From Candidatus Saganbacteria bacterium (lineage in GTDB: Bacteria; Margulisbacteria; WOR-1; XYC2-FULL-46-14; WPAF01): a stretch of DNA of 64,000 nt. The notes beneath the pieces were generated by a model. That model searched no databases and was not told the origin of the DNA. It saw only the letters and a program-made list of their open reading frames with translations. Made by a program: the position numbers and the translations under genes. Below, piece after piece: positions 2,417 to 26,799 of the stretch (its first letter is position 1; each line of letters opens with the position of its first letter). The DNA lies in assembly GCA_016223205.1 (NCBI GenBank), contig JACRPM010000010.1:26441-90440 (forward strand), read 5' to 3'.

Positions 2417-4444
2417 ATGAAAATACCGTTAGAGTGGCTGAAAGATCTGGTGGAAGTGAAGATGAGGCCCCAGGAGCTGCAAGCGCGGCTCACCATGGCG
2501 GGACTGGAAGTGGGAGCGCTGGAAGGCGAGGTGCTGGATATTGATGTTCTGCCTAATAGGGGGGATTGTTTAAGCATTTTGGGAGTAGCTAGGGAAGTGA
2601 GCGCGGTTACAAATACGAAACTCAAGAAACCAGCGAATAAATTCGCGGTTAAATCTAAGCGAGACGGCTCGACCGAGCTCGCCGAGGTCTTCAGTCTCGG
2701 CTTACACAAGATGTCAATCGAAGTAAAAGACAAAGAACTTTGTCCGAGATATATGGCGAGAATGATAGAGAAGGTCTCGGTCGGGGAATCGCCGGAATGG
2801 CTGAAGAAGAGATTAGTGCTTGCCGGACTGCGGCCGATCAATAACATCGTGGATGCCACCAATTACGTCCTGATGGAACTCGGCCAACCCCTGCATGCCT
2901 TTGATGCGGGAAAGATTGGCGGCCAAAAGATCGTGGTGCGACGCGCCAAACCCGGCGAGAAGATCATCACTTTGGACGGGATGGAGCATAAACTTGGAAA
3001 AGATACGCTGGCCATCGCCGATGACCAAAGACCGATCGCCCTAGCGGGGGTGATGGGCGGGGCCAACACGGAAGTTTCTGCTTCTACCACTTCGGTATTG
3101 CTGGAATCCGCTTATTTCGATCCCACTTCCATCAACAAAACCTCCAAAGCGGCCAAACTGCGCACCGAGGCTTCCATCCGTTTTGAAAAAGGCGTGGATT
3201 GGGAAAGGGTGGAGCAGGCCCTTGACCGCGCGGCGGCCCTTATCGCCGAGCTTTCGGGAGGGAAGGTCACCGGTTATAAAGTTGATATTAAGTCCAGGGA
3301 CCGGAAACCGAAAATCCTGGAATTAAGGCAAGAACGGCTGAATAGGGTATTGGGGACCACGGTGCCGCTAAGTGAGGCCGCGAAGATATTAGTAAGGCTG
3401 GGATTTACCCGCCTTCGCCAAGGCTCCGGCGGGCAGGGGAAATTGAAAGTAGGGGTTCCGTTGTGGAGAGCGGGAGACATCGAACGGGAAATTGACTTAA
3501 TAGAAGAGGTGGCGCGCCTGCGAGGGTACGATCGCATACCTACAACCCTGCCCCGGCCCGCGGGCGAAGTTAGAGAAGACCGGAAATATGCCTTCCTCAA
3601 GAAAATAAAAGAAATATTGGTCGGCTGCGGATTGTACGAAGCGCAAACCTTTACCCTGGTAGATCCCCAGATGGCCGGAGAAGAAGCGGTTAAGCTGGCC
3701 AACCCCATGGCGCCCGAAGAATCGGTCCTGCGGACCGAAATGCTGCCCAGCCTACTTAGGGCGGTCTCTTATAATTTAAGGCGGCAGGTGGAAGACGTGA
3801 AGCTTTTTGAGATCGGGAAGGTGTTTTTGGAACCGCGGCGTTCAGCCGCAGGTTCCATTCCCGCGGGTAAACCCCGCGGTTCTCTTACCGAGGAAAGGCT
3901 AATTCTCGCCGGAGCATCGACCAACCTTGATTTTCTTGGTCTCAAAGGCATTGTGGAAAATCTATTGAATGAACTTACCTCCGATTGGAAGCTGGAATCC
4001 ACCGCCAAACGGGAGTATCATCCCGGACAATCCGCCGCCGTGATCGGAAAAAGCGGAAAACTGCTGGGTACTTTCGGCCGCCTGCACCCCGAACTAAAAC
4101 CGGAAGGGGTCTTGGTGTTCGAGTTTGATATCGACGCGCTGTTGGGTGAAGCGCAGATCGGCAAGCGTTATAAACCCCTTCCCAAATATCCCAAGGTGGA
4201 GCGGGATCTGGCCATGTTCGTGCCGCCGGGGGTTACCTCCGGGCAGATCATTTTGATCATCCGCCAGGCCGGCGGCAACATTGTGGAAGAAGTTCGACTT
4301 TTTGATATATTCAAGAACAGCCAGGCCTATCGCATTTCTTTCCGCGACCCGGAGCGGACCCTCACCGATGAGGTCGTGAACCGCGCTTTTCTTACCATCC
4401 AGGATGAACTAACCGGCAAACTCAAAGTCCAGATACGCAAATGA
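2417..4444 (+). CDS. pheT: Phenylalanine--tRNA ligase beta subunit (short form lacking the B2 OB-fold tRNA-binding domain)
   Basis: 675 aa. N-terminal MKIPLEWLKDLVEV B1 domain runs directly into the ...PNRGDCLSILGVAREV B3 region. B5 and FDX-ACB-like C-terminus present. Starts 2 nt after the pheS stop. Confidence 0.9.
   Translation: MKIPLEWLKDLVEVKMRPQELQARLTMAGLEVGALEGEVLDIDVLPNRGDCLSILGVAREVSAVTNTKLKKPANKFAVKSKRDGSTELAEVFSLGLHKMSIEVKDKELCPRYMARMIEKVSVGESPEWLKKRLVLAGLRPINNIVDATNYVLMELGQPLHAFDAGKIGGQKIVVRRAKPGEKIITLDGMEHKLGKDTLAIADDQRPIALAGVMGGANTEVSASTTSVLLESAYFDPTSINKTSKAAKLRTEASIRFEKGVDWERVEQALDRAAALIAELSGGKVTGYKVDIKSRDRKPKILELRQERLNRVLGTTVPLSEAAKILVRLGFTRLRQGSGGQGKLKVGVPLWRAGDIEREIDLIEEVARLRGYDRIPTTLPRPAGEVREDRKYAFLKKIKEILVGCGLYEAQTFTLVDPQMAGEEAVKLANPMAPEESVLRTEMLPSLLRAVSYNLRRQVEDVKLFEIGKVFLEPRRSAAGSIPAGKPRGSLTEERLILAGASTNLDFLGLKGIVENLLNELTSDWKLESTAKREYHPGQSAAVIGKSGKLLGTFGRLHPELKPEGVLVFEFDIDALLGEAQIGKRYKPLPKYPKVERDLAMFVPPGVTSGQIILIIRQAGGNIVEEVRLFDIFKNSQAYRISFRDPERTLTDEVVNRAFLTIQDELTGKLKVQIRK
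2633..2683. repeat. Family-3 palindromic mini-repeat (GCGAATAAATTCGCGGTTAAATYTARGCGAGA...), in-frame inside pheT
   Basis: About 34 nt are near-identical to copies at 55087-55131 and 61311-61344. It encodes KKPANKFAVKSKRDGSTELAE within a linker that is about 14 aa longer than in E. coli PheT. Confidence 0.55.
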
Positions 4445-4498
4445 CCTCACCCCGCCCTCGGCAAGCTCGGGCACCCCTCTCCATAAAATGGAGAGGGG
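4445..4498. repeat. Family-1 composite palindromic element (CCTCACCC + GC hairpin + CCCCTCTCCA-N5-TGGAGAGGGG)
   Basis: Perfect 10-bp stem hairpin cccctctccaTAAAAtggagagggg followed by TTATTAC. Fills the pheT-mutS spacer and may also act as a terminator. Confidence 0.6.
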
Positions 4499-4575
4499 TT
4501 ATTACAAACAGATTAACTATTGGCTATTTCAGGGATAACCTATGAAAAATCCCGAAGGTGATAAATCAGTAAGAT

Positions 4576-4632
4576 TCCCTCTCCACAAAGTGGAGAGGGA
4601 TGTCCCCCGGCTTGCCGGGGGACAGGGTGAGG
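4576..4632. repeat. Family-1 composite palindromic element (tccctctccaCAAAGtggagaggga + cccccggcTTGccggggg + GGGTGAGG), inverted orientation
   Basis: Lies just upstream of the likely mutS start, inside the N-terminal extension of track ORF 4542. Confidence 0.6.
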
Positions 4633-4640
4633 TGACCCCC

Positions 4641-6866
4641 ATGGTGGCCCAGTACCGCGAGATAAAAGCCCGCCACCAGGATGCTATCCTCTTTTACCGC
4701 TTGGGGGATTTTTACGAAATGTTCAACGAGGACGCCGAGCTCGCCAGCCGGGAGTTGGACCTGACTTTGACCGGCCGCGGCAAGGATGAGAACCGCATGC
4801 CCATGTGCGGCATTCCTTATCATGCGGCGCAGGGCTACATTGCCCGGCTGATCGAGAAGGGCTACAAGGTAGCTATCTGCGAACAGACCGAAGATCCCAA
4901 CCTGGCCAAGGGATTGGTCAAAAGGGAGGTCGTTCGCATCGTGACCCCGGGGACGGTGCTCGAATCCGATCTATTGTCCGAAAAAAGCAGCAACTATCTG
5001 GCGGCGATCTCTTTGGAGAAGGGGAAATACGGGCTGGCTTATGTCGAGGCCTCGACCGGCGAGTTCAAGACGACCGATTTTACGGATGAAACACAGCTTA
5101 AAGCCGAGATCGACCGCATCGCTCCCGCCGAGACCATCGCCGCAAAAAACGGCTCCGCGGTTGACGCCATACTAGAATATCTCAAGCAAAACCGCAAGAC
5201 CCGCTTAGGGCATATTGGAGAGGCGGTAAGATATTCGGTCGGCGAGTTCATGCTGATCGATCCGCAAACCCGGCGGAATTTGGAGCTTATCCAGACCATC
5301 CGCGACCGGGCTTTTAAAGGAAGCTTGCTTTGGGTTTTAGACCAGTGCCGGACCAGCATGGGCAGCCGCCTGCTTAAAAATTGGCTGCTGGCGCCGCTGC
5401 TCAACCGGGAGGAGATCGAGCGGCGGCTGGAGGCGGTGGCGGAATTACATGGAAACGCCATCCTGCGCGCCGAATTGTCCAGAGAACTCGATCAGGTCTT
5501 TGATATCGAGAGATTGACCGGAAGGGCGGCCTCCGGCGCCGCCAACGCGCGCGACCTTATCTCTTTGGCCGAATCCTTAACGCATTTGCCCCGTATCGCC
5601 GATATTCTGAAAAATTCCAAAACCTTGAAAGTTCCAAATCCCTTGCCCGAAGTAACGGACCTTATCCATAGGGCGATCGTAAATGACCCGCCGTTTGTCT
5701 TGACCGCAGGCGGGATCATCAAGGATGGATATAATGCCGAGCTCGATGAGCTCAAGCAGGCGGCTCGCGGCGGTAAAAGCTGGATCACGGAGCTGGAGAA
5801 TAAAGAACGCCTGCGCACCGGCATCAAATCCCTCAAAGTCGGTTTTACCAAGGTGTTCGGCTACTATATCGAAGTGAGCAACGCCAATCAATCAGCGGTT
5901 CCCGCCGATTATATCCGCAAGCAAACCCTGGTGAACTGCGAGCGCTTTATCACCCCGGAGCTCAAGGATAAAGAATCTTTCATCTTGAACGCCGAAGAAC
6001 GGCTGAAGGACATGGAATATAAGATATTCTGCGAAGTCCGCGAACAGGTCGCGGAGCACACCAAAGAGCTTCAATCCATCGCCCGCCAACTGGCCCGGAT
6101 AGATGTTCTGCTTTCTTTGGCCGAAGTCGCGGTCGCCAACAATTTCTGCCGCCCCCGGATCACCGGATCAGCGGATATCCGGATAACCGAATCGCGTCAC
6201 CCGGTTGTCGAAAAAACTCTCGGAGAACAAAAATTCACCCCAAACAACATTGTGATGGATGCTGAATCGCGATTTCTCATGATTACGGGGCCAAACATGG
6301 CGGGGAAAAGCACGTATATGCGGCAAGTTGCCCTCATCTGCCTTATGGCCCAGATCGGCTCCTTTGTCCCGGCCGCATCCGCCGAGCTTGCGATCATCGA
6401 CCGCATCTTTACCCGCATCGGGGCCATGGACGACATTTTCTCCGGCCAGTCCACCTTTATGCTGGAGATGACCGAGACCGCCAATATCTTAAAGAACGCA
6501 ACCGAGAACAGCTTGATAATTCTCGATGAAATAGGGCGGGGGACGGCGACTTTTGACGGCATGTCGATCGCGGCGGCGGTGGCGGAATATATCCACGAAA
6601 AGATCAAAGCGAAAACCTTATTCGCCACGCATTATCACGAAATAACCCAGCTGGCGGAAAAACACCCCGGCATGAAAAATTTCAATGTTCTGGTCAAAGA
6701 AGTTGGGGAGGAAATCACCTTTTTGCATAAGATCGCGGAGGGCCCGGCGGACAAATCTTACGGCATCGCGGTAGCCAAGCTGGCGGGCTTGCCCGCTGAA
6801 GTGGTTAAGCGCGCGCGCGAGGTCTATAATACGCTCGAAATGGCGGAAACCGACTTACTTGGCTAA
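4641..6866 (+). CDS. mutS: DNA mismatch repair protein MutS (lacks the C-terminal tetramerisation tail)
   Basis: Canonical N-terminus TPMVAQYREIKARHQDAILFYRLGDFYEMFNEDA. Walker A ITGPNMAGKSTYMRQ. Track ORF starts at 4542, but that region is a palindromic repeat. Start placed at ATG 4641 (MVAQY). Confidence 0.85.
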   Translation: MVAQYREIKARHQDAILFYRLGDFYEMFNEDAELASRELDLTLTGRGKDENRMPMCGIPYHAAQGYIARLIEKGYKVAICEQTEDPNLAKGLVKREVVRIVTPGTVLESDLLSEKSSNYLAAISLEKGKYGLAYVEASTGEFKTTDFTDETQLKAEIDRIAPAETIAAKNGSAVDAILEYLKQNRKTRLGHIGEAVRYSVGEFMLIDPQTRRNLELIQTIRDRAFKGSLLWVLDQCRTSMGSRLLKNWLLAPLLNREEIERRLEAVAELHGNAILRAELSRELDQVFDIERLTGRAASGAANARDLISLAESLTHLPRIADILKNSKTLKVPNPLPEVTDLIHRAIVNDPPFVLTAGGIIKDGYNAELDELKQAARGGKSWITELENKERLRTGIKSLKVGFTKVFGYYIEVSNANQSAVPADYIRKQTLVNCERFITPELKDKESFILNAEERLKDMEYKIFCEVREQVAEHTKELQSIARQLARIDVLLSLAEVAVANNFCRPRITGSADIRITESRHPVVEKTLGEQKFTPNNIVMDAESRFLMITGPNMAGKSTYMRQVALICLMAQIGSFVPAASAELAIIDRIFTRIGAMDDIFSGQSTFMLEMTETANILKNATENSLIILDEIGRGTATFDGMSIAAAVAEYIHEKIKAKTLFATHYHEITQLAEKHPGMKNFNVLVKEVGEEITFLHKIAEGPADKSYGIAVAKLAGLPAEVVKRAREVYNTLEMAETDLLG

Positions 6867-9800
6867 AAAAATCGGTTTGATAATATTGTGCCTGATCCTC
6901 CTGGGCACGGTCGCCCAGGCCGCCGACATCTATGTTGACGCGGTGAACGGCGACAACACCCGCACCACCGCCGAAGCCCAGAACCCCGCCACTCCCTGGA
7001 AGTGCATTACTGTGGCGGCCACCGGAGCGGCGGTGGGAGACACGGTGCATGTGGCGCCGGGTTATTATCTAACGGCCACCGGCGAAGCCTTCCCCATAAC
7101 CATCACCGGACGATATTTTATTTCGACCACCACCGGCTTGGCCACGATCGATTCGGGCACCAAGATTGCTGATGCCATCCATCTGGGAGCCGGGGCTACC
7201 CTGGATGGCTTTACCGTTTTAAATGCCGCACCCTCAAATTATTATTACGACATATACGTTCCCGCTGCCAATGCTCATATCCGGAATTGCACTTTAAAGC
7301 AGAACAGTACTGCCGCACAAAACAGGGTGATCTGGGTGGATGCCGGAGGAGACCGGGTAAGTATTGAAGGGAATTCCCTCACTACGAATACCTCCAATAC
7401 TTCTGCTGTGGTTACCTTTACCAGCGGAGCGGATAATCCTATCATCCGCAATAATATCATCTATGGGCCGGGAAGCCAGACCACCGGCATTGATTTTGGC
7501 ACCACCGTCGCGCCTACGGTCGAAGGCAATACCATAACGGTGGGATATTCCGGCATCGTTCAAACCGGGACCAGTACCAACCAAAATATTCTAAATAACA
7601 AGGTCATTGCGGTCGGGACCAACAATAATTATGGATTCTATGTCGGCGGAACTGCGGCGACCTCCATTACCGGCACGATCTCCGGCAATGAATTTAGGAA
7701 CTGGAACAATTCGGCCGGATCTTCCGGTATCAGGATCGAAAATACCAACGCTAATTATACTATCTCTAAAAATACCCTAGTCAAGAATACGAATGGGGTG
7801 AGAGTCGGCGCCGGCACCGCGACCGTCCGTGACAACATCATCTCCGCTGGTCCGCGAGACGGCACTTATCTTTCGGGCAGCACTGGGATCTACCAATCGG
7901 GGGGAACAATAACTTCCACTTACAACAATCTTTTCAACAACATTACGACTTATTACGGAACAGTTGGCAGTCAATCCAATGACAATACTTCCAACCCCAG
8001 GTTCGTAAATCCGGACGGCAATGATTATCGACTATTCTCCGATTCTCCCTGCAAAAATACGGCGAGCGACGGCGGCAATCGGGGGGCATATGCCGCGACC
8101 GATACCACCTCCGGCATCACCACCGAATCTTATGTGGATGATGGCGGAAGCGACGTAACGGGGGATGGCACATTGGGCAATCCCTGGAGAACGATCACCA
8201 AGGGATTGGGCTCGACCGAGGGCACGGTCTATGTGCGGGCAGGGACCTATACTGCCGCCAAGGGCGAAACCTTTCCTTTGGCGATCGGCAGCGGCCAGAA
8301 ACTCATCAATTATTTAACGGAGGCGGCCACCATCGATTCCTCAACCACCGCCATCAATACTGTTAATCTGGCCAATAACGCCACCCTCGAAGGGATGACG
8401 GTGAACAATTCCTCCAATCAATCCGCCGTATATTTGGTCGGCCCCGACTCACAGTTGATAAACAGCACAATTTATCAGGCCGGATCGGGCGGTTCGGGCG
8501 CCGCGGTATATTACGCGTCCGATGCCGATCGCTGCCTGCTGGAGGGGAATACCATTACCGGCGGTTCCAATTCCGTCGCCGCCCTATATTTGTTGACCGG
8601 GGTGGACAATCCGATCGTCCGCAATAACACTATTGTCGAGCAAAAAACCTCCAGCGCCTATGCGATCTATTTTGGCGGGACCAGCAGTTATCCCACCATC
8701 GAAGGCAATACCATTACAACCGGATATAACGGTATCATCCAAGTCGGGATCTGCACGAATCAAAATATATTAAACAATAAGATCATCGGGACGGGAAGCA
8801 ATATTAATGCCGGGATATATTTTCAGACCAATTCCACCGGAACGGTGGCCAGCAATGAAGTTAGGGGCTGGAGTGGGACGAGCGGCGCCGGGATCTATGT
8901 GAGCGGCTCCACCGCCAATTTAACCCTTAACAAGAACACCCTGGTCAAGAACACCTATGGGGTGCAGGTCACCAATGGGACGGTGAACATCCAAAACTGC
9001 ATTATTTCCGCGGCGCCGAGGGGCGGCACATATCTTTCGGCCAGTATCGGGATATATCGGACGGGAGGAACGGTAACCTCCACTTATAATGATCTTTTCA
9101 ATAACGTTGTTAATTATTCCGGGACAGTAGGAAGCCAATCGAACGACATCACCACCAATCCAAGGTTTGTAAATCCGGACGGCAATGATTATCAGCTATT
9201 TTCCGATTCCCCCTGTAAAAATACCGCGAGCGACGGCGGCAACCGGGGGGCCTATGCCGCGACCGGCGTTACCTCCGGCATTACGACCGAATCTTATGTG
9301 GATGACGGGGGCAGTGATGTTACCGGGGATGGGACATTGGGCAACCCCTGGAAAACGGTCACCAAGGGCTTGGGCTCGACGGAAGGCACGGTCTATGTAA
9401 GGGCCGGGACCTACAATACGGCCAACGGCAACACCCTGCCCGTTTCCCTGGCGGCGGGGCAGACCTTAAAAGGATATGCTTCGGAGATAGCCACCGTCGA
9501 AGGGAACGGCAGCAACCATGTGGTCCTGATCGGCTCCAATGCGACGATCGATAATATTTACCTCAAATTGACCGGGAATTATTACGGCGTATATGCCGGC
9601 GCCTCAAATGTAAATATCACCCGCAGCAAGATCATCGGCAACAGCCAGGGAAGCGGGATCTATTTTGACGGTGCTTTGACCGGCGTAACGCCGGGGGGCA
9701 ATATCACCACCTGTGAGGTCGGCGCAGTCGATTACGGCATTAATCTCTACGGCGCCACCTCCTGCGGAAATATTACCATCGAGGGGAACACCATCCGCGA

Positions 9801-12800
9801 TTATGACATTTGGGGAATTTATATTTACTGGGGACAAAGCGGCGCGAGTAATTTGGTCGATATCAAGAGGAATATCCTCAACAACTGCAACAACGCCTCG
9901 GGGACTTCTTACGGCGGCATCTACGCCTGGCTCCATTACACCGGGACCGTCAATATCATAAACAATACCATTGTTAAAAATTCTTTGGGAATCTATGCCT
10001 ATCGCTATTCATCCACCTTAAACATGAACATAAGGAATAACATCATCAGCGACACGCCGCGGCCGGACGGCGGGCCCCGTAACGGCAGTTATGGCCTGTA
10101 TAAAGATCAAGCGCTCTCTTTCATCTCTTCTTACAATAATGTTTGGAATCAGAGAACCAACTTCTATGGGGTGAGTGCGGGCACGGGCGATATTTCCGCC
10201 TATCCGCGATTTGTGGATCCCTGGAACAATAATTTCGACCTATATTCGGATTCGCCTTGCATCGGGACGGGATCGGGAGGTGCAAATATCGGGGCTTATG
10301 AAGGGGCGGGGGCGGCTAACTCGCCTTACCGGACCACCTCTTATGTCAACAACACCACCGGAGTCGACGCGGTGACCTCCGGAGAATCGGTCTCCAATCC
10401 CTATAAGACCGTTACCTTTGCCAATAAATATACGCTTGGCACGATAAATGTGGCGGCCAGCTCCAACAAGTACAATTCCACCAACAGCGAAACTTTTCCC
10501 ATAGATCTGGGCGCGGGCGGAGGAAAGCGGCTTTCCGGCGCCGACAGCGGCTCGGTCACCCTCGAGGGCTACGGCACGGATACTCATTTAGTTCCGGGGT
10601 CTTCCCTGGTTTATGGTTTAGGGGCCTTTACCAGCACGACCATTGAGGGTATCACTCTGCAGGGTATGGGGAACAATACGGGAGTTTATTTTTACGGGTC
10701 TAATCCAATTATCCAAAATTCGATCATCAAGGGGCCGCTCGCGGGAACCGGTTCTTCCGGCAAAGGCGTATATTTTGACGGCACTAATGGGGCATCAACC
10801 GGAGGCACGGTATCCACCTGCGAAATTACCAGTCTGGACTACGGGATTTATTTCACTGGAAGCACAACCTGCGGCAATATCACGATCGAAGGGAATGATA
10901 TCCACGACAATTATCAATGGGGCATCTATCATTATTTTTGGGCGCCGACCTCCAACGCCAATAATTTTATCGATATAAAACGGAACTTGATACGGAACTG
11001 CCTTAATACTTCCACCTCTTACGGCGGCATCTACGCCTGGACCTATTTTGTGACCTTGAACGTCAACCGCAACACGATCGTAAAAAATCCTATCGGGATC
11101 TATGCTTACCGATACGACAGCTATCTTACTCTGATCGCCAAGAACAATATTGTCGCATCGGAGATCGGCGGCTTTTCGGTAACGGGATCCAAAGGGATCT
11201 TGCGGGAGGGGGGGACCCTGACCAATACTTATAACGACGTATATTCGAACGACACCAATTGGTCGGGAGTGGCTTCCGGGGAAGGGAGCATTTCTGCCGA
11301 CGCCCTTTTCGTCAATGCCACCAACAACGATTTCCATCTCCAGCAGGGCTCCCCAGCCATCGATTCCGGCACACCGGCCGGCACCGACATGGGGGCGTAT
11401 GATTATAGTTCAACTACTCCCACCGTTACCCTGGGAAGCCCCAACGGCGGGGAGACCTGGGGTGCGGGCGCCTGGCACAACATTACCTGGGAGACCACCA
11501 ATACCCCTGACTCCATCAATCTCTATTATATTACCAGCGAGGCCACCGGATATCAGACCATTGCGACCGGTATTTCGGATAACGGCTCTTATCCTTGGCT
11601 GGTGCCGAACCGCGCGACCTCCACTGCCAAGGTAAGCGTCGAGGCGGTCAAAGCGGCAGAGACCGCTCGGGATGAATCGGCCGCGTACTTCACCATCACC
11701 GCGGCGACCAATTATTATGTGGATGCGACGAACGGGAATAATGCTTACAGCGGTATCACTTCCGAGGTCTCGGGAACCAACGGACCCTGGAAAACCCTAA
11801 CTTATGCTTCCACCCAAGCCGCGGCCTCGTCCACCACCCATGTAGCGGCGGGGACCTATAATGCGGCTCTGGGGGAAAGCTTCCCCATCGCCATTGCCAA
11901 CCTTAATTTTATCTCCTCGGCTTCGCCCACTACTTTAGCGACCATCGATGCCGGATCCAGCAACTGTATCACCCTGGGAGCGGCCGGTTATTTGGCGGGT
12001 TTCGATCTTAAATCGACTACTACCGATAAGGTGATCTATGTGACCGGAGCTAGCGCTTATATCGTCAGCAATAGGATGGCAACTTCGTATTCTATAACCA
12101 GCAATTACGATATTGATGTGGCCGATGCCGGCGATAATATCTTGATCCAGGGCAATACCATAGATTCGAAAAGAACCAACAATATCCGTTTGGAGACCGG
12201 CGCCGATAATCCGATCGTCAAGGACAACACTTTGACCACCGCCCAAAGTTACCAAACCGGCATCTATGTGAACTGGGTTACCACCCGGGTCACCGTAGAG
12301 GGGAATACCATTGTCGCGGACCAGGGCATATATCTGGGCAACTCTTGCAGCAATATTGATATTCGCACCAATGTGATCTCACCTTACAGCGCCGATTCCA
12401 GCGCTTATAAGGGAATGTTTTTGAGGGGGACCGGTACGGTGGCCAGTAATGAGGTGCGCGGGTATAAAAATTACGACACCTCCAATACCGCCGCCATATA
12501 TATCTATGACGGCACCATCACGGTCAGAAATAACACCCTGGTAAACAATGTAGTGGGGGTGGGCAACAGCTACGGCACTGCTACCATCAAAAACAATATT
12601 ATTTCCGCCGCTCCCAAGTTAAATTCCATTTATACCGATTACGGGGGCGGATTAGTAAACAGTGTGGGGATATGGGGGAGGGCCGGATACACCACCAACG
12701 CCAGTTATAATAACGTTTTCAATAATTACGCCAATTATTCGGGAAGCAGTATCACCCGATCGAACGAGCTCAATACTTGTCCGAGATTCGTCAATCCCGA

Positions 12801-15800
12801 CACGAATGATTTTCGGCTCTACTATGATTCTCCCAGCCGGGCAACGGCCGACGACGGCGGCAACCGGGGCAGGTATAGCGCTATCGGGACCAGCTCCGGA
12901 ATAACGGCCGAGTCCTATGTTTCGACCGCCGGCAATGATTCAACGGGTGACGGCAGTTTGTCTAATCCCTGGAAGACGGTGACCAAGGCGGTTTCTTCGA
13001 CCGAGGGAACGGTTTATGTGCGGGCCGGTAATTTCACCGCCAACGAGACCTTCCCCCTGGTCCTGACCGGCGGCCAAAAGGCGACCCGTTATCTTACCGA
13101 GTCGGCTTCGATCGATGCAACCGGGGCGGGCGCCAAGCATACTTTTATAACCGGATCGGCCGCCACCATAGAGTCGCTCACCCTGACCGCGAACAACACC
13201 AATGCCAGTTATTTCTCGATCTATTCCCTGGGCAATACCCACATCAAGAACAATACGCTTAACGCGGCGGTGAGCGGCGTATATCTCCGCGCAAATTACT
13301 GCACGGTCGAAGGCAACGCCATAACCATGAGCGGCTCCAGCGGTTATGGGGTAACCGTTCATGACAGCGGCGATTATTCGCTTATCCAAAACAACAGCAT
13401 AACCGCGAATGCCAGCGACGGCCGGGGGATCAGATTGGAAAATTATGCGGATAACATTACCGTAAGCGGGAATACCGTTGAAGCCCGGGCCTTTGGGATG
13501 GAGGTGGCCTCTTACAATAATAATTATAATATTACCAACAATATCTTGAGGGGGGCCGGGGTGGCGAGCTCTTACGGAATATATGCCAGTTACGTTTATA
13601 CCGGAAGCATTTCCTCGAATGAAGTGTCGAATTTTTACTACGGGATCCAGGCCGACTGTAATTCCGGCACCAGCACGATCTGGAACAATACCATCGTTAA
13701 TTTCACCACCGGCATTTACTCCTCGAACGGCGCCGCCAAGGTCATTAAAAACAATATCGTGAGCTCGTTGCCTACCTTCCCCTCGCTCCCGACCAGCGGG
13801 ACCAAAGGGATAGATCACATCGGGGGGACTACCACCCTAAAGAATAATGACATCTGGAACAATGAAACCAACTACAGCAACACCTCCGCCGGGACGGGCG
13901 ATATATCTCAAAATCCCAGATTTGTAAGCGCGGCGAGCAGCGATTTTCGCCTTTACAGCGATTCTCCCTGCGCCGCCGGCGGCGAAGGCGGGACCTATAT
14001 CGGGCGTTTCCCGGCGCTGGGAACTACTTCCGGCATAACCACGGAATCTTATGTGAGCGTGAGCGGAAATGATACGACCGGGAGCGGGACCCTAACCAGT
14101 CCCTGGAGGACCGTCACTAAAGGCTTGGGTTCAACGGAGGGGACGGTTTATGTAAGAGCGGGAACTTACACCGCGGGCGAGACCTTCCCCTTGGTCTTAC
14201 CTGCCGGAGAGCAGCTTAAAGGATATTTAACCGAAGCGGCGACCATCGATTGCACCGGGATTTCCGGAAAGAACACGGTGAACCTGGGAAGCAATACCAC
14301 CCTCGAAGGCCTGACGATCATCAACGCAGAAGGATCCGGCGCTTACCACACGATATATGCAGCTTCCTCCGGATCCCATATCAAGAACAATAAGATATAT
14401 CAAAATGGAGCGGCTTCGGGATCCTACGCCCTGTATCTAACGGCCGCCGCCGATCAATGCAGTATCGAAGGGAATACCATTCAGACCGGGAGCTCCAACG
14501 ATATAACGGTCTATCTGAGCAGTGGAGCGAATGATCCCATCATTAGGAACAACAACCTCACCGGAACAAAGTCCTCAAATTATGTCCTTTATTTCGCCGG
14601 CACCAGCAGCTCGCCGATCATTCAGAGCAACACCATAACCGGAACCTATTTCGGCATTTATCAGGGAGGAGCCCTAACCAATCAAGATCTAAGCAGCAAC
14701 AAGATCATCGCGACCGGATCCAATCATGTTTACGGAATATATATGGGATCGAATTCAACCGGCATCGTTTCCACCAATGAAGTGCGGGGCTGGAACGCCT
14801 ATTCTTATTCCTACGGCATCTGGGTGGGCGGCTTTAGCTCCAACCTGACCTTTAACAAGAATACGATCGTCAAATGCCAGACCGCTCTGGCTACCGGCGG
14901 CACCGCGAATATAACCAACAATATCATAGCGGGGGAGATCGGCGGTTTTTCTGGCTCCAATGTCAAGGGGATCGATAATGACAGCAGCGGCACGGTAACC
15001 TCGACTTACAACGACATTTATGCCAACGATATCACTTACGAAGGAACGGTGAGCAATAAAACCGGAGACCTGCAACAAAATCCTTTATTCGTCGACGCTG
15101 CCAATAACGATTACCATCTAACTTCGACTTCCCCCGCCATCGACGCCGGCGACCCGGCATCGCCGCACGATCCCGATGGTACGCGGGCGGACATGGGAGA
15201 ATACTATTTTAACCAGACCAATGACGCGCCCTCGGTTACCCTGCTCACTCCCAGCGGCGGCCAGAGCTTGACCGGCGGGGCCAGCTACAATATTACCTGG
15301 GCCGCCACCCAGCCGGCTTCGGGAGTGGATCATGTCGACATTTATTACTCCACCAACAGCGGATCGACCTATCCCAACCTGATCGTAGCCGGGACCTCCA
15401 ATGACGGCACTCATCCCTGGACCGTTCCCACCATCAATTCCACCACCGATAGGGTAAAAGTAATAGCGGTCTCGGGGGTAGGAGTTCTTGGCACCGGTGA
15501 AAGCAGTTCGGATTTTTCGATCACCACCGATTCCCAGGGTCCCACAGTCGAGGTTACTTCTCCGATCGGTGGGGAGTTGTGGAAGGGAGGGTCAACCCAC
15601 AATATCACCTTTACCGCGACCGATGAAGCCGGCCTTAAGGCCAATTCCCTTTATGCCTGGTATTCGACCAACGGAGGATCCACTTACCCTAATATCATAA
15701 CTAGTGAAGCCATCATTACTTCACCCTTCGTGTGGAATATCCCAGCCACGATCAATTCCCAGACGGTGCGGGTGCGTTTGAATATTTGGGATGCCTACAA

Positions 15801-18800
15801 CAATATCGGCACCGGGGAGAGTTCGGCAAGTTTTACTATCGATTCCACCCCTCCCACCGTTACCGTCCTGTCCCCGACGGGAGGGGATAAGTGGCAGGGT
15901 GGGACCAGCCACGACCTTACCTGGACCGCCACCGACAATTTTACACTGGAAGCTAATCCCATAACTCTCCAGTACTCGATTGATGCCGGAAGCAGCCGCA
16001 CCGACATTGCCACCGGGGAGGCAAATGACGGGAGCTATTCCTGGACAACGCTTTCCACCAACACCGATGAAGCGCGGATCAAGGTTTTGGCGCAGGATGT
16101 GTGCGGCAATATCGGCTCCGCCGAAAGCGCCAATTTCGTCATCGATTCCACGGCTCCAACGGCTCCGACCCTTTTAGCCCCGGCCAACGGATCAGCCACC
16201 GCCGAATCGCGGCCTCAATTAAGCTGGAATGCGGCAGTGGATTCCATCTCGGGGATCTCGAGTTACGAAGTGACCATCGATACCAACGTAGTAACCATCG
16301 ATGCCACCACCAGCTACACCACGCCGGACGCGCTTTCAGCCGCGGCGCACAGCTGGAAGGTGAAGGCCAAGAATGGCGTCGGTCTTTGGGGAGATTATTC
16401 GGAAACCTGGACCTTTACTACGGGTGTCGGCCCCAGTGCGGCGGGCATTGCGCTCAAAGATCGGGTCTATGGCAGTACCCAGTACTCCAACAGCTTGACC
16501 ATCTCGCTCGAAGTCCACGATGCGACCGGCTCGCCGACCCAAAGGCGAACTGCGCAGGATTCGGCATTTAGTGTCAATGACACCGGCTGGCTGACCTATG
16601 CCACCACCTCCGAATATACCTTTACCGCGGGGGAAGGCAGTCGCACGGCTTATTTTAAGATGCGCGACGCGTTCCAGAATGAAAGCGGCGCCTACAACGC
16701 CTCGATCGTAATCGATACCGTGCCGCCTTCACAGGTAACCCTGCTCACCCCGGCCAACAACAGTTATACCAACGACACCACACCGACATTCACTTGGAAT
16801 GCGGCCACGGACGCGACGAGCGGCGTGGCCAGCTATGAGGTGGTGATCGACACCACCCAGATCGCAACGGTCGGCGCGGTCACCACTTACACCACGCCCG
16901 ACGCCGAATCACAAGGACTGCACAACTGGAAGGCGCGCGCCAAGGACAACGCTCAAAATTGGGGGGAATATTCAACCACCTGGAATTTGACCGTTGAAAC
17001 CACCAATCCAACGGTAACTTTGGGCAAACCCAACGGCGGGGAAACCCTGGCTTCGGGCGCAAGCTACAGCATCACCTGGGAAGCGGCGGACAATTTCGGG
17101 TTAAAGACCGATCCCGTCACGCTCAACCTTTCAACCAACGGCGGAAGTTCTTGGTCCACCATCCAGGCCGGGATCTCCTACGTCACCGGCGAGGGGACCT
17201 ATTCCTGGACGGTGCCGTCGGTATCTTCCACCACCTGTCTGGTAAGCATCGAGGTGGAGGATAACGCCGGAAACAAGGGATACGACATCAGCAATTCAAC
17301 CTTTACCATCTCCAATACGCAGCCGACCGCTACGGTCACTTATCCCAACGGCGGGGAATACTTAAAAGGCGCGACCGCTTATAATATTACCTGGATCGCC
17401 ACAGGCGAGCCGGCTCCGGTCGCCATTAATCTGCGTTATTCGACCAACAGCGGATCGAGCTGGACGCTGATCGCCAGCAACGAAAGCAATGACGGAACTT
17501 ATGCCTGGACCACGCCTGCTATCGATTCTATAACCGATCGGGTCAGCGTCGAGGCGGTGGATGGTTTGGGGAGGGTGGGGACCGGGCAAAGCGCCGCGAA
17601 TTTTGCGATCGACAGTACTACTCCGGAAGTTGCGGTGGTCGCTCCAAGTGGCGGAGAACGGCTGGCGGGAGGGTCTTCCTATAATATCCAGTGGACCGCC
17701 ACAGACACAGTGGGCCTGCCGGCTAATCCCATCACGTTGAGATATTCAACCGATAGTGGAAGCAGTTGGACGCCCATCGCCGCTGCCCAACCCAACACGT
17801 CCCCCTATGCCTGGACGGTGCCGACGGTCAACTCCACCACCGTACGGGTAAGCGTCGAAGCGACCGATCGGGTCGGCTTTACCGGAACTGCCCAGAGCGC
17901 GTCGGATTTTATAATCGACAGCACCACTCCTACAGTACTGACGGTATCGCCCACCGACGGGGCGACCTCGGTTTCGATCAGCGCCACAGTGATCATCGTC
18001 TTCAGCAAGGAAATGAGCCGGGAAGCCACTCAAAACGCATTCTCGCTTTCCGCTTCGCCTGCGGTCTCGGGCGGTTTCTCCTGGAGCGGCGATGGTAAAA
18101 CCCTAACCTTCACTCCAGCTGCAGCTCTTGAATATAATACTCTTTATACGGTCGCGGTGGCCGCCGCGGCAACGGACCTGGCGGGCAACCATCTTACGGC
18201 TTTCTCCTCGAGCTTCACCACTGCGCCAAGAGGGGATTCCGAAGCGCCCCATATCATAATCCAAAGAGTAGATGCCCAAGGTGTGGCCAATACCCTGAAG
18301 GACGGGGATTATATTCCTAAACAGCCCAGGTTCAAAGGGGTCATAACCGATAATCTGGGAGTGAGCCGCGCCACCATCAAGTTCTACCTGGACGATGTGG
18401 AAACGGCGGCAACGATAACCGAGGTCTCTGTCACCAGATATGAAGTGGCTTACACGGTAACCTCCAATCTCGAAGGGGAGACAGTGAGGACTCATAGCGT
18501 TAAACTGGTCGCCAGCGATACTGCCGGTAATTCTACGACCCAGGAGATCACGGGACTTAAAGTTTCCTACGAATCAGGGAAAGTGATCGGCCCCGTGCTT
18601 ACTTATCCCACCACCTATAATCCGTTGACCGGCCAGCCGGCCCGCCTGGCTTACAATCTCACCGCCGACCAAGATGTGATGCTTTATATGCTGGATATCT
18701 CCGGACAAGTTGTCTGGACGGGCAAATATCCTTCGGGCGCCGAGGGCGGCAAGGCCGGCTATAACGAAATTCTCTTCTACGGCCGCTCCGAGATCTCCGG

Positions 18801-18885
18801 AACATTCCTCGGCAACGGCATCTATATCTACAAACTGGTGGCAGGCAATCGGGTCATCGGGACGGGAAGGTTGGCGATATTCTAA
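6859..18885 (+). CDS. Giant secreted surface protein (4008 aa): signal peptide, at least 5 right-handed parallel beta-helix modules, about 14 Ig/Fn3-like domains, T9SS-type (Por_Secre_tail / FlgD-Ig-like) C-terminal sorting domain
   Basis: Signal peptide MAKKIGLIILCLILLGTVAQA. Apparent TTG start overlapping the mutS stop. Repeated module ...NPRFVNPDGNDY(R/Q)LFSDSPCKNTASDGGNRGAYAAT..SGITTESYV..GDGTLGNPWKT(V/I)TKGLGSTEGTVYVRAGTY. PbH1-like NN(I/T)I repeats. Repeated PNGGE.W..G....ITW Ig-like domains. C-terminal ...YPTTYNPLTG...MLYMLDISGQVVWTGKY...GIYIYKLVAGNRVIGTGRLAIF. Confidence 0.85.
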   Translation: MAKKIGLIILCLILLGTVAQAADIYVDAVNGDNTRTTAEAQNPATPWKCITVAATGAAVGDTVHVAPGYYLTATGEAFPITITGRYFISTTTGLATIDSGTKIADAIHLGAGATLDGFTVLNAAPSNYYYDIYVPAANAHIRNCTLKQNSTAAQNRVIWVDAGGDRVSIEGNSLTTNTSNTSAVVTFTSGADNPIIRNNIIYGPGSQTTGIDFGTTVAPTVEGNTITVGYSGIVQTGTSTNQNILNNKVIAVGTNNNYGFYVGGTAATSITGTISGNEFRNWNNSAGSSGIRIENTNANYTISKNTLVKNTNGVRVGAGTATVRDNIISAGPRDGTYLSGSTGIYQSGGTITSTYNNLFNNITTYYGTVGSQSNDNTSNPRFVNPDGNDYRLFSDSPCKNTASDGGNRGAYAATDTTSGITTESYVDDGGSDVTGDGTLGNPWRTITKGLGSTEGTVYVRAGTYTAAKGETFPLAIGSGQKLINYLTEAATIDSSTTAINTVNLANNATLEGMTVNNSSNQSAVYLVGPDSQLINSTIYQAGSGGSGAAVYYASDADRCLLEGNTITGGSNSVAALYLLTGVDNPIVRNNTIVEQKTSSAYAIYFGGTSSYPTIEGNTITTGYNGIIQVGICTNQNILNNKIIGTGSNINAGIYFQTNSTGTVASNEVRGWSGTSGAGIYVSGSTANLTLNKNTLVKNTYGVQVTNGTVNIQNCIISAAPRGGTYLSASIGIYRTGGTVTSTYNDLFNNVVNYSGTVGSQSNDITTNPRFVNPDGNDYQLFSDSPCKNTASDGGNRGAYAATGVTSGITTESYVDDGGSDVTGDGTLGNPWKTVTKGLGSTEGTVYVRAGTYNTANGNTLPVSLAAGQTLKGYASEIATVEGNGSNHVVLIGSNATIDNIYLKLTGNYYGVYAGASNVNITRSKIIGNSQGSGIYFDGALTGVTPGGNITTCEVGAVDYGINLYGATSCGNITIEGNTIRDYDIWGIYIYWGQSGASNLVDIKRNILNNCNNASGTSYGGIYAWLHYTGTVNIINNTIVKNSLGIYAYRYSSTLNMNIRNNIISDTPRPDGGPRNGSYGLYKDQALSFISSYNNVWNQRTNFYGVSAGTGDISAYPRFVDPWNNNFDLYSDSPCIGTGSGGANIGAYEGAGAANSPYRTTSYVNNTTGVDAVTSGESVSNPYKTVTFANKYTLGTINVAASSNKYNSTNSETFPIDLGAGGGKRLSGADSGSVTLEGYGTDTHLVPGSSLVYGLGAFTSTTIEGITLQGMGNNTGVYFYGSNPIIQNSIIKGPLAGTGSSGKGVYFDGTNGASTGGTVSTCEITSLDYGIYFTGSTTCGNITIEGNDIHDNYQWGIYHYFWAPTSNANNFIDIKRNLIRNCLNTSTSYGGIYAWTYFVTLNVNRNTIVKNPIGIYAYRYDSYLTLIAKNNIVASEIGGFSVTGSKGILREGGTLTNTYNDVYSNDTNWSGVASGEGSISADALFVNATNNDFHLQQGSPAIDSGTPAGTDMGAYDYSSTTPTVTLGSPNGGETWGAGAWHNITWETTNTPDSINLYYITSEATGYQTIATGISDNGSYPWLVPNRATSTAKVSVEAVKAAETARDESAAYFTITAATNYYVDATNGNNAYSGITSEVSGTNGPWKTLTYASTQAAASSTTHVAAGTYNAALGESFPIAIANLNFISSASPTTLATIDAGSSNCITLGAAGYLAGFDLKSTTTDKVIYVTGASAYIVSNRMATSYSITSNYDIDVADAGDNILIQGNTIDSKRTNNIRLETGADNPIVKDNTLTTAQSYQTGIYVNWVTTRVTVEGNTIVADQGIYLGNSCSNIDIRTNVISPYSADSSAYKGMFLRGTGTVASNEVRGYKNYDTSNTAAIYIYDGTITVRNNTLVNNVVGVGNSYGTATIKNNIISAAPKLNSIYTDYGGGLVNSVGIWGRAGYTTNASYNNVFNNYANYSGSSITRSNELNTCPRFVNPDTNDFRLYYDSPSRATADDGGNRGRYSAIGTSSGITAESYVSTAGNDSTGDGSLSNPWKTVTKAVSSTEGTVYVRAGNFTANETFPLVLTGGQKATRYLTESASIDATGAGAKHTFITGSAATIESLTLTANNTNASYFSIYSLGNTHIKNNTLNAAVSGVYLRANYCTVEGNAITMSGSSGYGVTVHDSGDYSLIQNNSITANASDGRGIRLENYADNITVSGNTVEARAFGMEVASYNNNYNITNNILRGAGVASSYGIYASYVYTGSISSNEVSNFYYGIQADCNSGTSTIWNNTIVNFTTGIYSSNGAAKVIKNNIVSSLPTFPSLPTSGTKGIDHIGGTTTLKNNDIWNNETNYSNTSAGTGDISQNPRFVSAASSDFRLYSDSPCAAGGEGGTYIGRFPALGTTSGITTESYVSVSGNDTTGSGTLTSPWRTVTKGLGSTEGTVYVRAGTYTAGETFPLVLPAGEQLKGYLTEAATIDCTGISGKNTVNLGSNTTLEGLTIINAEGSGAYHTIYAASSGSHIKNNKIYQNGAASGSYALYLTAAADQCSIEGNTIQTGSSNDITVYLSSGANDPIIRNNNLTGTKSSNYVLYFAGTSSSPIIQSNTITGTYFGIYQGGALTNQDLSSNKIIATGSNHVYGIYMGSNSTGIVSTNEVRGWNAYSYSYGIWVGGFSSNLTFNKNTIVKCQTALATGGTANITNNIIAGEIGGFSGSNVKGIDNDSSGTVTSTYNDIYANDITYEGTVSNKTGDLQQNPLFVDAANNDYHLTSTSPAIDAGDPASPHDPDGTRADMGEYYFNQTNDAPSVTLLTPSGGQSLTGGASYNITWAATQPASGVDHVDIYYSTNSGSTYPNLIVAGTSNDGTHPWTVPTINSTTDRVKVIAVSGVGVLGTGESSSDFSITTDSQGPTVEVTSPIGGELWKGGSTHNITFTATDEAGLKANSLYAWYSTNGGSTYPNIITSEAIITSPFVWNIPATINSQTVRVRLNIWDAYNNIGTGESSASFTIDSTPPTVTVLSPTGGDKWQGGTSHDLTWTATDNFTLEANPITLQYSIDAGSSRTDIATGEANDGSYSWTTLSTNTDEARIKVLAQDVCGNIGSAESANFVIDSTAPTAPTLLAPANGSATAESRPQLSWNAAVDSISGISSYEVTIDTNVVTIDATTSYTTPDALSAAAHSWKVKAKNGVGLWGDYSETWTFTTGVGPSAAGIALKDRVYGSTQYSNSLTISLEVHDATGSPTQRRTAQDSAFSVNDTGWLTYATTSEYTFTAGEGSRTAYFKMRDAFQNESGAYNASIVIDTVPPSQVTLLTPANNSYTNDTTPTFTWNAATDATSGVASYEVVIDTTQIATVGAVTTYTTPDAESQGLHNWKARAKDNAQNWGEYSTTWNLTVETTNPTVTLGKPNGGETLASGASYSITWEAADNFGLKTDPVTLNLSTNGGSSWSTIQAGISYVTGEGTYSWTVPSVSSTTCLVSIEVEDNAGNKGYDISNSTFTISNTQPTATVTYPNGGEYLKGATAYNITWIATGEPAPVAINLRYSTNSGSSWTLIASNESNDGTYAWTTPAIDSITDRVSVEAVDGLGRVGTGQSAANFAIDSTTPEVAVVAPSGGERLAGGSSYNIQWTATDTVGLPANPITLRYSTDSGSSWTPIAAAQPNTSPYAWTVPTVNSTTVRVSVEATDRVGFTGTAQSASDFIIDSTTPTVLTVSPTDGATSVSISATVIIVFSKEMSREATQNAFSLSASPAVSGGFSWSGDGKTLTFTPAAALEYNTLYTVAVAAAATDLAGNHLTAFSSSFTTAPRGDSEAPHIIIQRVDAQGVANTLKDGDYIPKQPRFKGVITDNLGVSRATIKFYLDDVETAATITEVSVTRYEVAYTVTSNLEGETVRTHSVKLVASDTAGNSTTQEITGLKVSYESGKVIGPVLTYPTTYNPLTGQPARLAYNLTADQDVMLYMLDISGQVVWTGKYPSGAEGGKAGYNEILFYGRSEISGTFLGNGIYIYKLVAGNRVIGTGRLAIF

Positions 18886-26662: not shown

Positions 26663-26798
26663 CCTCACCCCTTCGCTTCGCTCTTCCCCTCTCCATCAAA
26701 GATGGAGAGGGGCTATCAATAAAAGGAAATCAGTTGACAATCAGAATAACCCCCTCTCTACGAAGTGGAGAGGGGGTGCCCGAAGGGCGGGGGTGAGG
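26663..26798. repeat. Family-1 composite palindromic element (CCTCACCCC ... two CCCCTCTCCA/TGGAGAGGGG-type hairpins ... GGGGTGAGG) filling the alaS-ruvX spacer
   Basis: Outer 9-nt inverted repeat CCTCACCCC/GGGGTGAGG. Hairpins cccctctccaTCAAAGAtggagagggg and ccccctctctaCGAAgtggagaggggg. GC hairpin gcccGAAgggc. An internal TTGACA may serve as the -35 for ruvX. Confidence 0.6.
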
Positions 26799-26799
26799 T

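Follow-up and report, generated by a model that had tools for sequence, protein, structure and literature searches.

The bacterial repeats known as BoxC, PIT or TM_ECO were reportedly described in work by Bachellier in the 1990s, by Hoyne and Maher in 2000, and by Holder et al. in 2015. The TM_ECO pattern, CCCTCNCCC-N3-6-GGGNGAGGG-N3-GGGNGAGGG, is that of an intrastrand purine-motif triplex former; E. coli K-12 holds 23 copies, five of them in inverted pairs, and 3610 copies were counted over 262 proteobacterial genomes in a survey that met the pattern in Proteobacteria only, the position reported being always intergenic (PMC4666352). The same report, citing Hoyne and Maher, credits the copies with neither promoter nor terminator activity, and describes no function or mobility for them (PMC4666352), and in the literature on bacterial triplex repeats after Holder et al. 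(2015) we found nothing on mobility. A second described family, whalefall-1 of Rfam (RF01762), was published as a certain small RNA (sRNA), known only from whale-fall metagenomes (PMC2864571). Here we describe three composite palindromes, designated A, B and C, in a 64-kb stretch of DNA (hereafter the window; 53% G+C) from a metagenome-assembled genome (MAG) of Candidatus Saganbacteria (Margulisiibacteriota). The GltD-like, RuvX and MutS proteins of the window match NCBI proteins from an organism of that name at 100% identity. Judged by their architecture, the three palindromes would belong to the same intrastrand triplex class as BoxC/PIT/TM_ECO, whalefall-1 corresponding to their subtype with a hairpin linker, and two of them are insertions relative to close relatives of the host.

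The three composites (A, 4445-4632; B, 26663-26798; C, 56180-56280) share a common module, formed by a 9-nt terminus (CCTCACCCC or GGGGTGAGG, with the core CCTCACCC(C)), a linker of 14-37 nt that is mostly a GC-rich hairpin (for example GTCCCCCGG-CTTG-CCGGGGGAC, GTCCCGAT-GAA-TCGGGAC, or GCCC-GAAG-GGC), and a pyrimidine/purine hairpin, H, of the form CCCCTCTCCA-loop-TGGAGAGGGG. The composites hold five H hairpins in total, all with 10-bp arms and loops of 5-7 nt. In A and B an inverted pair of modules flanks an AT-rich core, of 77 nt and 38 nt, respectively, and C, with its 101 nt, consists of a single H with a terminus at either side. An earlier, sequence-only reading of the window had noted five copies, and had their positions and sequences right; the two opposed copies that it placed around the mutS start (4445-4498 and 4576-4632) are the inverted halves of A, the alaS-ruvX spacer is indeed filled entirely by copies, and the gltD-like gene does hold one in frame. 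The arm of H, allowing up to one mismatch, occurs 17 times in the window against 5.65 +/- 2.23 expected, a number that none of 100 shuffles reaches, and the terminus core CCTCACCC occurs 8 times against 2.59 expected, which a single shuffle in 100 reaches. Moreover, arm and terminus co-occur in a fixed order, and the units, taken as single strands, fold, in models of Watson-Crick pairing only, much more stably than their shuffles (z from -4.9 to -8.9), so that counts, order and folding all speak against the chance palindromes that the same reading had kept as a way out.

Each terminus of these modules repeats the neighboring hairpin arm in mirror order, and the two vary together. Read in reverse, GGGGTGAGG becomes GGAGTGGGG, which matches the arm GGAGAGGGG at 9 of 9 positions. 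The same comparison was made for every pyrimidine/purine hairpin in about 1 Mb of fetched loci, with A and T counted as interchangeable: a perfect 9/9 mirror copy stands in the flank of 16 of the 23 distinct non-symmetric arm types and a perfect direct copy in 2 of the 23, and the score of each arm against its own mirror is higher both than its direct-copy score (Wilcoxon p=1.4e-4) and than its score against the flanks of other arm types (p=3.3e-4). For example, the arm GGAGAAGGG is found with the terminus GGGATGAGG, AAGAGAGGG with GGGTGAGTT, and GGGGGAGGG with GGGAGGGGG. The shared 9-nt inverted termini had at first been read as those of a MITE/REP-like family; their co-variation with the arms points to the triplex-motif class and away from fixed transposase-binding ends. 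Mirror repeats do not arise by ordinary replication errors, nor can they form Watson-Crick pairs, and hence they suggest a constraint on triplex-type geometry.

The likeness to BoxC/TM_ECO lies in the succession of a C-rich arm, a short loop, a G-rich arm, and a second G-rich segment that mirrors it, as well as in the multiplicity of copies, the frequent inverted pairs, the conservation of the arms and the freedom of the loops. Each window unit has a homopyrimidine arm, a loop of up to 7 nt, a perfectly complementary homopurine arm, and on the same strand a third segment able to pair as G.G-C, A.A-T or T.A-T antiparallel to the purine arm; the E. coli sequence GGGAGAGGG...GGGTGAGGG corresponds to GGAGAGGGG...GGGGTGAGG in the window, with the same substitution of A by T. 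Triplex formation by the window units is accordingly a prediction by analogy with the E. coli sequence, for which an in vitro triplex is known. Arms of the E. coli type are present in a relative (L127) as CCCTCGCCC-TCT-GGGAGAGGG...GGGTGAGGGC, but with a 40-nt linker; in that relative this unit and a second one lie at 2725-2850, in the spacer between yceG and guaA, two genes that overlap in the window. The differences are also clear: the arm register is shifted in the window (CCCCTCTCC), so that the literal published pattern is unmatched; the second loop, of 3 nt in TM_ECO, has 14-37 nt here and is often a GC hairpin; copy C and two copies of a second arm family lie in frame within genes, whereas TM_ECO is reported to be strictly intergenic; the host belongs to Saganbacteria/Margulisiibacteriota and not to the Proteobacteria; and for window copies an insertion with its empty site is documented.

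With regard to whalefall-1, the right half of A (4575-4634) aligned in a permissive scan with model positions 1-56 of 56 of RF01762, with 32.7 bits (E=5e-7), which is below the gathering score of 37 bits; at gathering thresholds Rfam gave no match in the window nor in 18 related loci, and the other window copies had no RF01762 match in the permissive scan. In the 16 seed sequences of RF01762, H is followed by a second, variable hairpin that has a CUUG loop, and then by a tail, AGGGUGAGGAC or AGAGGGAGGAC, that varies along with the H arm; within single contigs these sequences form divergent inverted pairs separated by 35-50 nt. This is also the layout of A and B, which present hairpin 1, a variable hairpin 2, a G-rich 3' tail and divergent pairs, with arms of the CUCUCC/GGAGAG type, a CUUG-loop second hairpin, and the conserved 3' tail CAGGGUGAGG. 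In whalefall-1 the tail mirrors the purine arm of the first hairpin, a relation absent from the published description, and while the family was described as an sRNA, the window data point to a DNA repeat; on these sequence grounds, whalefall-1 seems to represent the subtype of the triplex-motif repeat in which the linker is a hairpin. A single rule, the mirror co-variation of terminus and arm, would thus unite E. coli BoxC/TM_ECO and Rfam whalefall-1, and give the triplex-motif class a range of many phyla, among them candidate phyla, as well as phage contigs. What is new for a known, if poorly understood, class is the hairpin linkers, the in-frame copies, the documented insertions at ATGA, and the candidate-phylum host.

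That composites A and B were inserted follows from the empty sites of close relatives, and 3-5 bp are duplicated around the elements. Element A sits between the pheT stop (4442-4444) and the actual mutS ATG (4641). In relatives, the pheT stop overlaps the mutS start as ATGA (AAAATGACCGACC...; …AGAAAATGACCGACCAGACCCCCATGGTGGCC…), and the window reads …GCAAATGA(element)TGACCCCCATGGTGGCC…, with either TGA or TGACC duplicated. The empty site is found in L211 and L212, whose MutS is 93% identical, and in L213, where it is 79% identical; by blastn, 5 nt in L211 stand in place of window positions 4447-4633. Since the ancestral mutS ATG was lost with the insertion, MutS must begin at ATG 4641 (MVAQY…), 5 nt past the Shine-Dalgarno-like (SD-like) GGTGAGGTGA that the end of A forms. 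The public 774-aa MutS model (P0241) begins at ATG 4542, within the core of A, as did the 5' extension of the mutS open reading frame (ORF) proposed previously; as the relatives begin with MTDQTPMVAQY... or at the position that corresponds to ATG 4641, this extension is almost certainly not translated as MutS. Element B takes up the entire spacer that separates the alaS stop (26660-26662) from the ruvX ATG (26800). Its empty site is found in L123-126 (RuvX 89% identical) and in L129/130 (75%), where alaS and ruvX overlap as ATGA (…CACTATGAGGAT…); the window reads …CGCTATGA(136 nt)TATGAGGAT…, with TATGA duplicated and with stop and start both intact. A second relative with an 89% RuvX (L127/L128) holds a diverged orthologous copy of B, from which it follows that this insertion predates the split from that lineage.

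Both elements landed exactly on the ATGA overlap of stop and start, and it is the insertion at ATGA with 3-5 bp duplicated that allowed the flanking genes to survive. No such hairpin was found in 22 kb around mutS of L211, the relative with the 93% MutS, and short-read contigs of the same organism begin or end within elements, observations that fit a multi-copy, recently active repeat. The contigs L001/L002 and L128 at their starts, and L279 at its end, are independent short-read assemblies that break within B or at an element of the second arm family. The flanks of many complete units prolong the palindrome, and the boundaries vary by lineage.

Copy C lies in frame within ORF 55816-57252, where it encodes 33 residues, ASPLSSPSPTASENSFPSPSKMERGVPMNRDGV; in the GltD-like protein these fall between the Fe-S and FAD domains, in an interdomain linker that is hypervariable across 14 homologues. 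This element recurs at an identical codon position in one homologue with 75% identity (L214), another with 91% (L216) has a unit with different arms that obeys the mirror rule, and others carry peptides of the 'PLPEGEGS' type or plain AT-rich linkers, the linkers of several relatives being derived from other repeats. Given that the entire linker is hypervariable, a clean empty site for C was not found among the GltD homologues; by its sequence, the segment clearly derives from the repeat, and it is tolerated. The second arm family has the arms CTCCCCCTT/AAGGGGGAG and the termini CCCCCTCTC/GAGGGGGTG in the same architecture as A, B and C; of its two window copies, the one in the BioA-like gene is also present in L216. 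The Rickettsia palindromic elements, which Ogata et al. are said to have reported in 2000 as in-frame palindromic repeats of protein genes, tolerated as extra peptide, resemble these copies in that respect, and differ in being unrelated in sequence, restricted to Rickettsia, and without a mirror or triplex architecture. In PheT, comparison with an 80%-identical relative reveals extra in-frame segments of 19 aa, 8 aa and 3 aa (window 3830-3886, 2664-2690), the first encoded by another palindrome, GAACCGCGG…CCGCGGTTC; small in-frame palindromic insertions seem, to judge from such sequences, to be common in the host genome. At the level of annotation, the public MutS start falls within A, and the BioB tail, the GltD linker and the BioA loop are repeat-derived peptides.

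The motif is not confined to the copies noted at the outset. When 185,579 species genomes were searched for the exact H hairpin, at least 120 stretches matched and, in nearly all of the matches listed, H adjoins the same terminus, with CCTCACCCCC located 5' of it or GGGGGTGAGG located 3' of it, across a linker of 4-5 nt. Among these listed matches are Chloroflexota (the most numerous), Gemmatimonadota, Acidobacteriota, Bacteroidota, Desulfobacterota, Myxococcota, Armatimonadota, Planctomycetota, Zixibacteria, phyla of the candidate phyla radiation (CPR) and others, and single MAGs frequently yield several of them; the exact hairpin is also present in 29 viral contigs. Tandem arrays of units exist in some genomes and in one viral contig, such as five copies at 57-nt spacing (L242, 4341-4608), or 93-nt composites every 209-269 nt (L078, 1646-2425).

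The most valuable by-product of the analysis is the association of these modules with a nuclease. When all the ORFs of about 150 element-bearing loci were clustered, no recurrent transposase was found among them, and the only recurrent families were housekeeping families, phage structural genes, and DUF559. The last of these, a recurrent family of small ORFs (PF04480; E 1e-29 to 1e-35), comes from four Gemmatimonadota loci and one Saccharibacteria locus, so that PF04480 ORFs are bracketed by inverted modules at 5 of the at least 120 hairpin-selected loci, among the matches listed. The four Gemmatimonadota brackets are identical to window modules (CCTCACCCCC-N4-H … H-N4-GGGGGTGAGG), the final codons of the bracketed ORF extending into the right H, and a repeat search delimits DUF559 units of 495-525 bp with inverted ends of 56-63 nt (94-98% complementary) and a sole ORF inside. 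These units behave as intruders, between pntAA and pntAB, between paaD and paaZ, or splitting a DUF1156 gene; in Sphingomonas the unit directly follows an ATGA, and one unit lies in frame within a 4.9-kb ORF adjoining brxC. This last case is on a Pseudanabaena plasmid (L247, 2380-3000), where the DUF559 domain, annotated within the continuous 4.9-kb ORF, is flanked by whole composites with two arm types in the order a-b-ORF-b-a, an entire unit that, from its sequence, may be read through in frame.

The reverse test took 16 DUF559 loci from plasmids and chromids (cyanobacteria; alpha-, beta- and gamma-Proteobacteria; Deinococcus), and counted perfect pyrimidine/purine hairpins of at least 7 bp: their density is 2.82/kb within about 300 nt of the gene, compared with 0.38/kb in the rest of +/-2.5 kb. 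The test was positive at 13 of the 16 loci, with lineage-specific arms that keep the mirror rule. For 14 DUF559 genes of viral contigs, which were found with a query alignment of four sequences, a single-protein query having matched nothing, the densities are 1.47/kb near and 0.04/kb farther away. Recurring hairpins were also seen downstream of DUF559 genes in L254 (2900-4500) and L252 (3000-3700, at a spacing of about 281 nt). E. coli K-12 has a single DUF559 gene, ycjD. This gene terminates (…RRSPSP*) within a degenerate H, and downstream of it lie the remnant 3' end of a second DUF559 and then, 168 nt past the stop, TM_ECO no. 9, at coordinates that agree exactly with Table 1 of PMC4666352. 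Directly upstream of ycjD (L246, 4762-4828) there is a perfect palindrome, ACCTCATTCTGACAA-N11-TTGTCAGAATGAGGT, with ends similar to the termini (ACCTCA…TGAGGT) seen in the window family. No link between DUF559 and repeats was found in the literature searched. Introns or inteins carry homing endonucleases, which spread by copying themselves into homologous alleles, whereas the DUF559 gene is bracketed by triplex-motif inverted repeats between unrelated genes. It does share with Vsr and the PD-(D/E)XK homing endonuclease I-Bth0305I the condition of a small stand-alone nuclease gene that intrudes in operons or genes, and DUF559 has been grouped with Vsr and with a group-I-intron homing endonuclease (PMC3424549).

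The explanation that we favor, and consider the probable one with appreciable room for doubt, is that A, B and C are non-coding, MITE-like (miniature inverted-repeat transposable element-like) insertion elements built from an intrastrand triplex motif. The building block would be the homopyrimidine/homopurine hairpin H together with a nearby mirror copy of its arm, in which A may become T; two inverted modules with a short AT-rich core would give composites such as A and B, and one H with both mirror segments a unit such as C. The copies would probably have been mobilized in trans by elements of about 0.5 kb that encode only a DUF559 nuclease (Vsr-like, PD-(D/E)XK), and whose terminal inverted repeats of 45-63 nt would be modules of the window type. 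As keeping both hairpin and mirror takes four coordinated changes, the structure would probably be needed for the propagation of master copies, and not because each locus serves the host. Like MITEs with their parent insertion sequence (IS), or REP/REPIN (repetitive extragenic palindromic) sequences with their RAYT (REP-associated tyrosine transposase), these are short non-coding units (101-188 nt; three loci and two of the sister family in 64 kb, with copies in relatives) that share inverted ends with a small coding element, here a candidate parent, through identical terminus-plus-H modules around DUF559 in Gemmatimonadota and through lineage-specific arms in many taxa; and like them they are scattered at gene junctions and break assemblies. 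They differ in that the candidate parent is a nuclease of about 120 aa and not a DDE or Y1 transposase, and in that their ends co-vary with an internal hairpin, without a regular target duplication and without a GTAG/CGTC tag. The MITE/REP-like label given by the sequence-only reading therefore holds for a dispersed, modular, palindromic repeat that is inserted, as the empty sites attest, and fails for a strict REP, which would have the tag, and no RAYT gene was found nearby.

Beyond the window, we hold more tentatively, and at somewhat less than an even chance, that BoxC/PIT/TM_ECO, whalefall-1 and the window elements are all non-autonomous derivatives of one widespread, undescribed mobile class of about 0.5 kb that encodes DUF559 only and has triplex motifs as its long terminal inverted repeats, the nuclease or the copying process recognizing a hairpin-plus-mirror geometry and no fixed sequence. 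If so, DUF559, including YcjD of E. coli, would gain a function, the origin of an orphan repeat family of roughly 30 years' standing would be accounted for, and the in-frame and ATGA-overlap copies in at least 10 phyla and in phage contigs would be explained. Were the link to DUF559 to hold, BoxC-type repeats would have their missing enzyme, a large domain family would have a role, and E. coli, with ycjD and 23 BoxC copies, would be a ready experimental system.

Several facts weigh against the favored explanation. The insertion of A is not perfectly clean, 9 nt (the codons DQT) having been lost relative to relatives, and the duplications at A and B are unequal in length and rest on two events. 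The check for target-site duplications finds them at these two sites and does not generalize: C has none, 38 of the 49 complete units in the window and the fetched loci have none, nor is one visible at three clean DUF559 units. The cores of A, B and the L127 copy, aligned as whole composites, gave no convincing homology. No DUF559 gene was found in the 64-kb window or in the fetched loci of the relatives, and we know of no route by which a lone PD-(D/E)XK nuclease inserts DNA at non-homologous sites. In addition, the brackets have two topologies, T-H-ORF-H-T and H-T-ORF-T-H (T being the terminus), which also fits a DUF559 that preferentially inserts in, or is retained beside, pre-existing motifs. 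Finally, the TM_ECO triplex was formed in vitro and went undetected in vivo (PMC4666352).

These same topologies, which fit co-localization as well as carriage, lend themselves to an explanation without mobility, in which the units would be H-DNA or cruciform elements of local origin, maintained by the host and acting on recombination, replication pausing or supercoiling, and DUF559 proteins would be co-localizing repair enzymes; Holder et al. tie the E. coli motifs to local instability and to no mobile element (PMC4666352). It is unlikely, nevertheless, because composites of 136-187 nt stand at junctions that measure 0 nt in the relatives, with junction bases duplicated, which makes local origin implausible, because distant phyla and phage contigs hold identical modules, and because the 495-525-bp units, with their 56-63-nt inverted ends and nothing but a nuclease gene, lie within unrelated operons. 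Quite unlikely, too, is that the copies work as a structured RNA, either the whalefall-1 sRNA or the terminator or attenuator between essential genes that had been suggested for them. The near-threshold match to RF01762 is full-length, whalefall-1 was rated certainly RNA by its covariation and stable tetraloops (Weinberg et al., PMC2864571), linker hairpins show compensatory changes between copies and CUUG-type loops, and every window copy lies in a transcribed operon and has a strong RNA fold. However, copies in both orientations and palindromic composites amount to the same structure on both strands, one copy is translated in frame, the closest relatives manage without the elements, and the single-stranded tail is explained by the mirror rule, whose purine form works for DNA and not for RNA (PMC4666352). 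Hairpin-plus-T-run terminator sites are absent from 4300-4800 and from 26500-26950 (0 in each), a promoter scan of A and B found no promoter-like sites, and the E. coli relatives are reported to be likewise inactive (PMC4666352), which leaves the terminator or attenuator role unsupported.

A MITE derived from a conventional DDE insertion sequence, with CCTCACCCC as a terminal inverted repeat bound by transposase and with a target duplication of fixed length, would account for the short duplications around A (TGA/TGACC) and B (TATGA), for small, non-coding units with inverted ends in several copies, and for assemblies that break at them. We give it little credence, as the termini shift with the hairpin arms over 23 variants, which is unexpected for an end recognized by a protein, as the 38 units without flanking duplication do not conform, and as the sole recurrent small ORF of the clustered loci is DUF559 and not a transposase. 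Less plausible still is a REP/REPIN family mobilized by a RAYT, that is, a Y1 transposase of the IS200/IS605 type. The inverted hairpin doublets around a short spacer, their intergenic position at operon junctions, and the want of a consistent target duplication, as single-strand transposition predicts, do recall REPINs; but the unit ends read CCTCACCCC and lack the GTAG/CGTC tag of the REP families described in PMC3733652, no recurrent RAYT-like or Y1-transposase ORF appeared among the loci, near-identical 25-nt modules cross phyla whereas REPs are lineage-specific, and REPs have no counterpart of the mirror relation.

Whatever the means by which the elements arrived, their modelled effect would be felt in translation. 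As an RNA, A gives a single long fold of -112 kcal/mol (z -8.9), in which the SD-like GGUGAGG is paired with CCUCACC. Because the relatives couple these genes through ATGA overlaps, it is likely that A and B uncouple and dampen the translation of MutS and RuvX: we infer that they break the ancestral translational coupling, and they would probably sequester the SD-like GGUGAGG in the terminal stem, lowering translation of both proteins. Two repair genes, mutS and ruvX, would in this manner have been uncoupled from the upstream tRNA-synthetase genes by insertions. The coordinates of the parts are collected in Table 1.

Table 1. Positions in the window of the composite elements, their parts, the duplicated junction bases, and the copies of the second arm family
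Feature	Position	Strand	Remark
pheT stop TGA, left copy of the duplication around A	4442-4444	+	
A, 5' terminus CCTCACCCC	4445-4453		candidate third strand, mirroring the pyrimidine arm
A, left linker hairpin (GCCC...GGGC)	4454-4473		module layout, folding
A, left H hairpin CCCCTCTCCA-TAAAA-TGGAGAGGGG	4474-4498		arm count, folding
A, AT-rich core, 77 nt, holds ATG 4542	4499-4575		ATG 4542 is the public mutS start
A, right H hairpin TCCCTCTCCA-CAAAG-TGGAGAGGGA	4576-4600		arm count, folding
A, right linker hairpin TGTCCCCCGG-CTTG-CCGGGGGACA	4601-4624		aligns with second stem of whalefall-1
A, 3' terminus GGGTGAGG	4625-4632		mirror of purine arm; part of SD-like GGTGAGGTGA
Right TGA copy at A (TGACC counting the first two element bases)	4633-4635	+	
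TATGA, left duplication copy at B	26658-26662	+	includes alaS stop
B, left half: terminus CCTCACCCC, 14-nt pyrimidine-rich linker, H 26686-26712	26663-26712		
B, AT-rich core, 38 nt	26713-26750		
B, right half: H 26751-26775, linker hairpin GTGCCCGAAGGGCG, terminus GGGGTGAGG 26790-26798	26751-26798		
TATGA, right duplication copy at B	26799-26803	+	restores ruvX ATG (26800)
C, unit	56180-56280		in frame, GltD-like interdomain linker
C, terminus	56180-56188		
C, left linker	56189-56225		
C, H hairpin	56226-56252		
C, linker hairpin	56253-56271		
C, terminus	56272-56280		
Second family copy CCCCCTCTC-TTT-CTCCCCCTT-AAT-AAGGGGGAG-ACGGAG-GAGGGGGTG	58105-58152		in frame in minus-strand BioA-like aminotransferase gene
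Second family copy with hairpin linker	60277-60342		gives BioB-like ORF its last ~22 codons (…DTPSVPRQSSGPLPLAKGEKERG*), abuts next ATG

Some minor observations concern the surroundings of these loci. The MutS relatives drawn from a metagenome scan, with at most 57% identity, were too distant for an empty-site comparison, and it was a protein search that gave the 93% relative. One MutS homologue (P0244, 1183 aa, 74% identity) contains intein/LAGLIDADG domains (PF14890, PF14528), which indicates a mutS intein in a sister lineage. The mutS stop is overlapped by the start of an ORF of 4008 aa (6859-18885) with many Beta_helix/DUF1565 repeats, whose counterpart in L211 has 4254 aa and internal repeats that are rearranged, as several blastn diagonals reveal. 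Between guaA and the IMPDH gene of the window (29725-31151) there is an ORF with an AbiEii domain and a partner ORF of 204 aa, a pair that by its sequence looks like an inserted toxin-antitoxin or abortive-infection system; in L123, L124, L127 and L129, guaA and the IMPDH gene are adjacent or nearly so.

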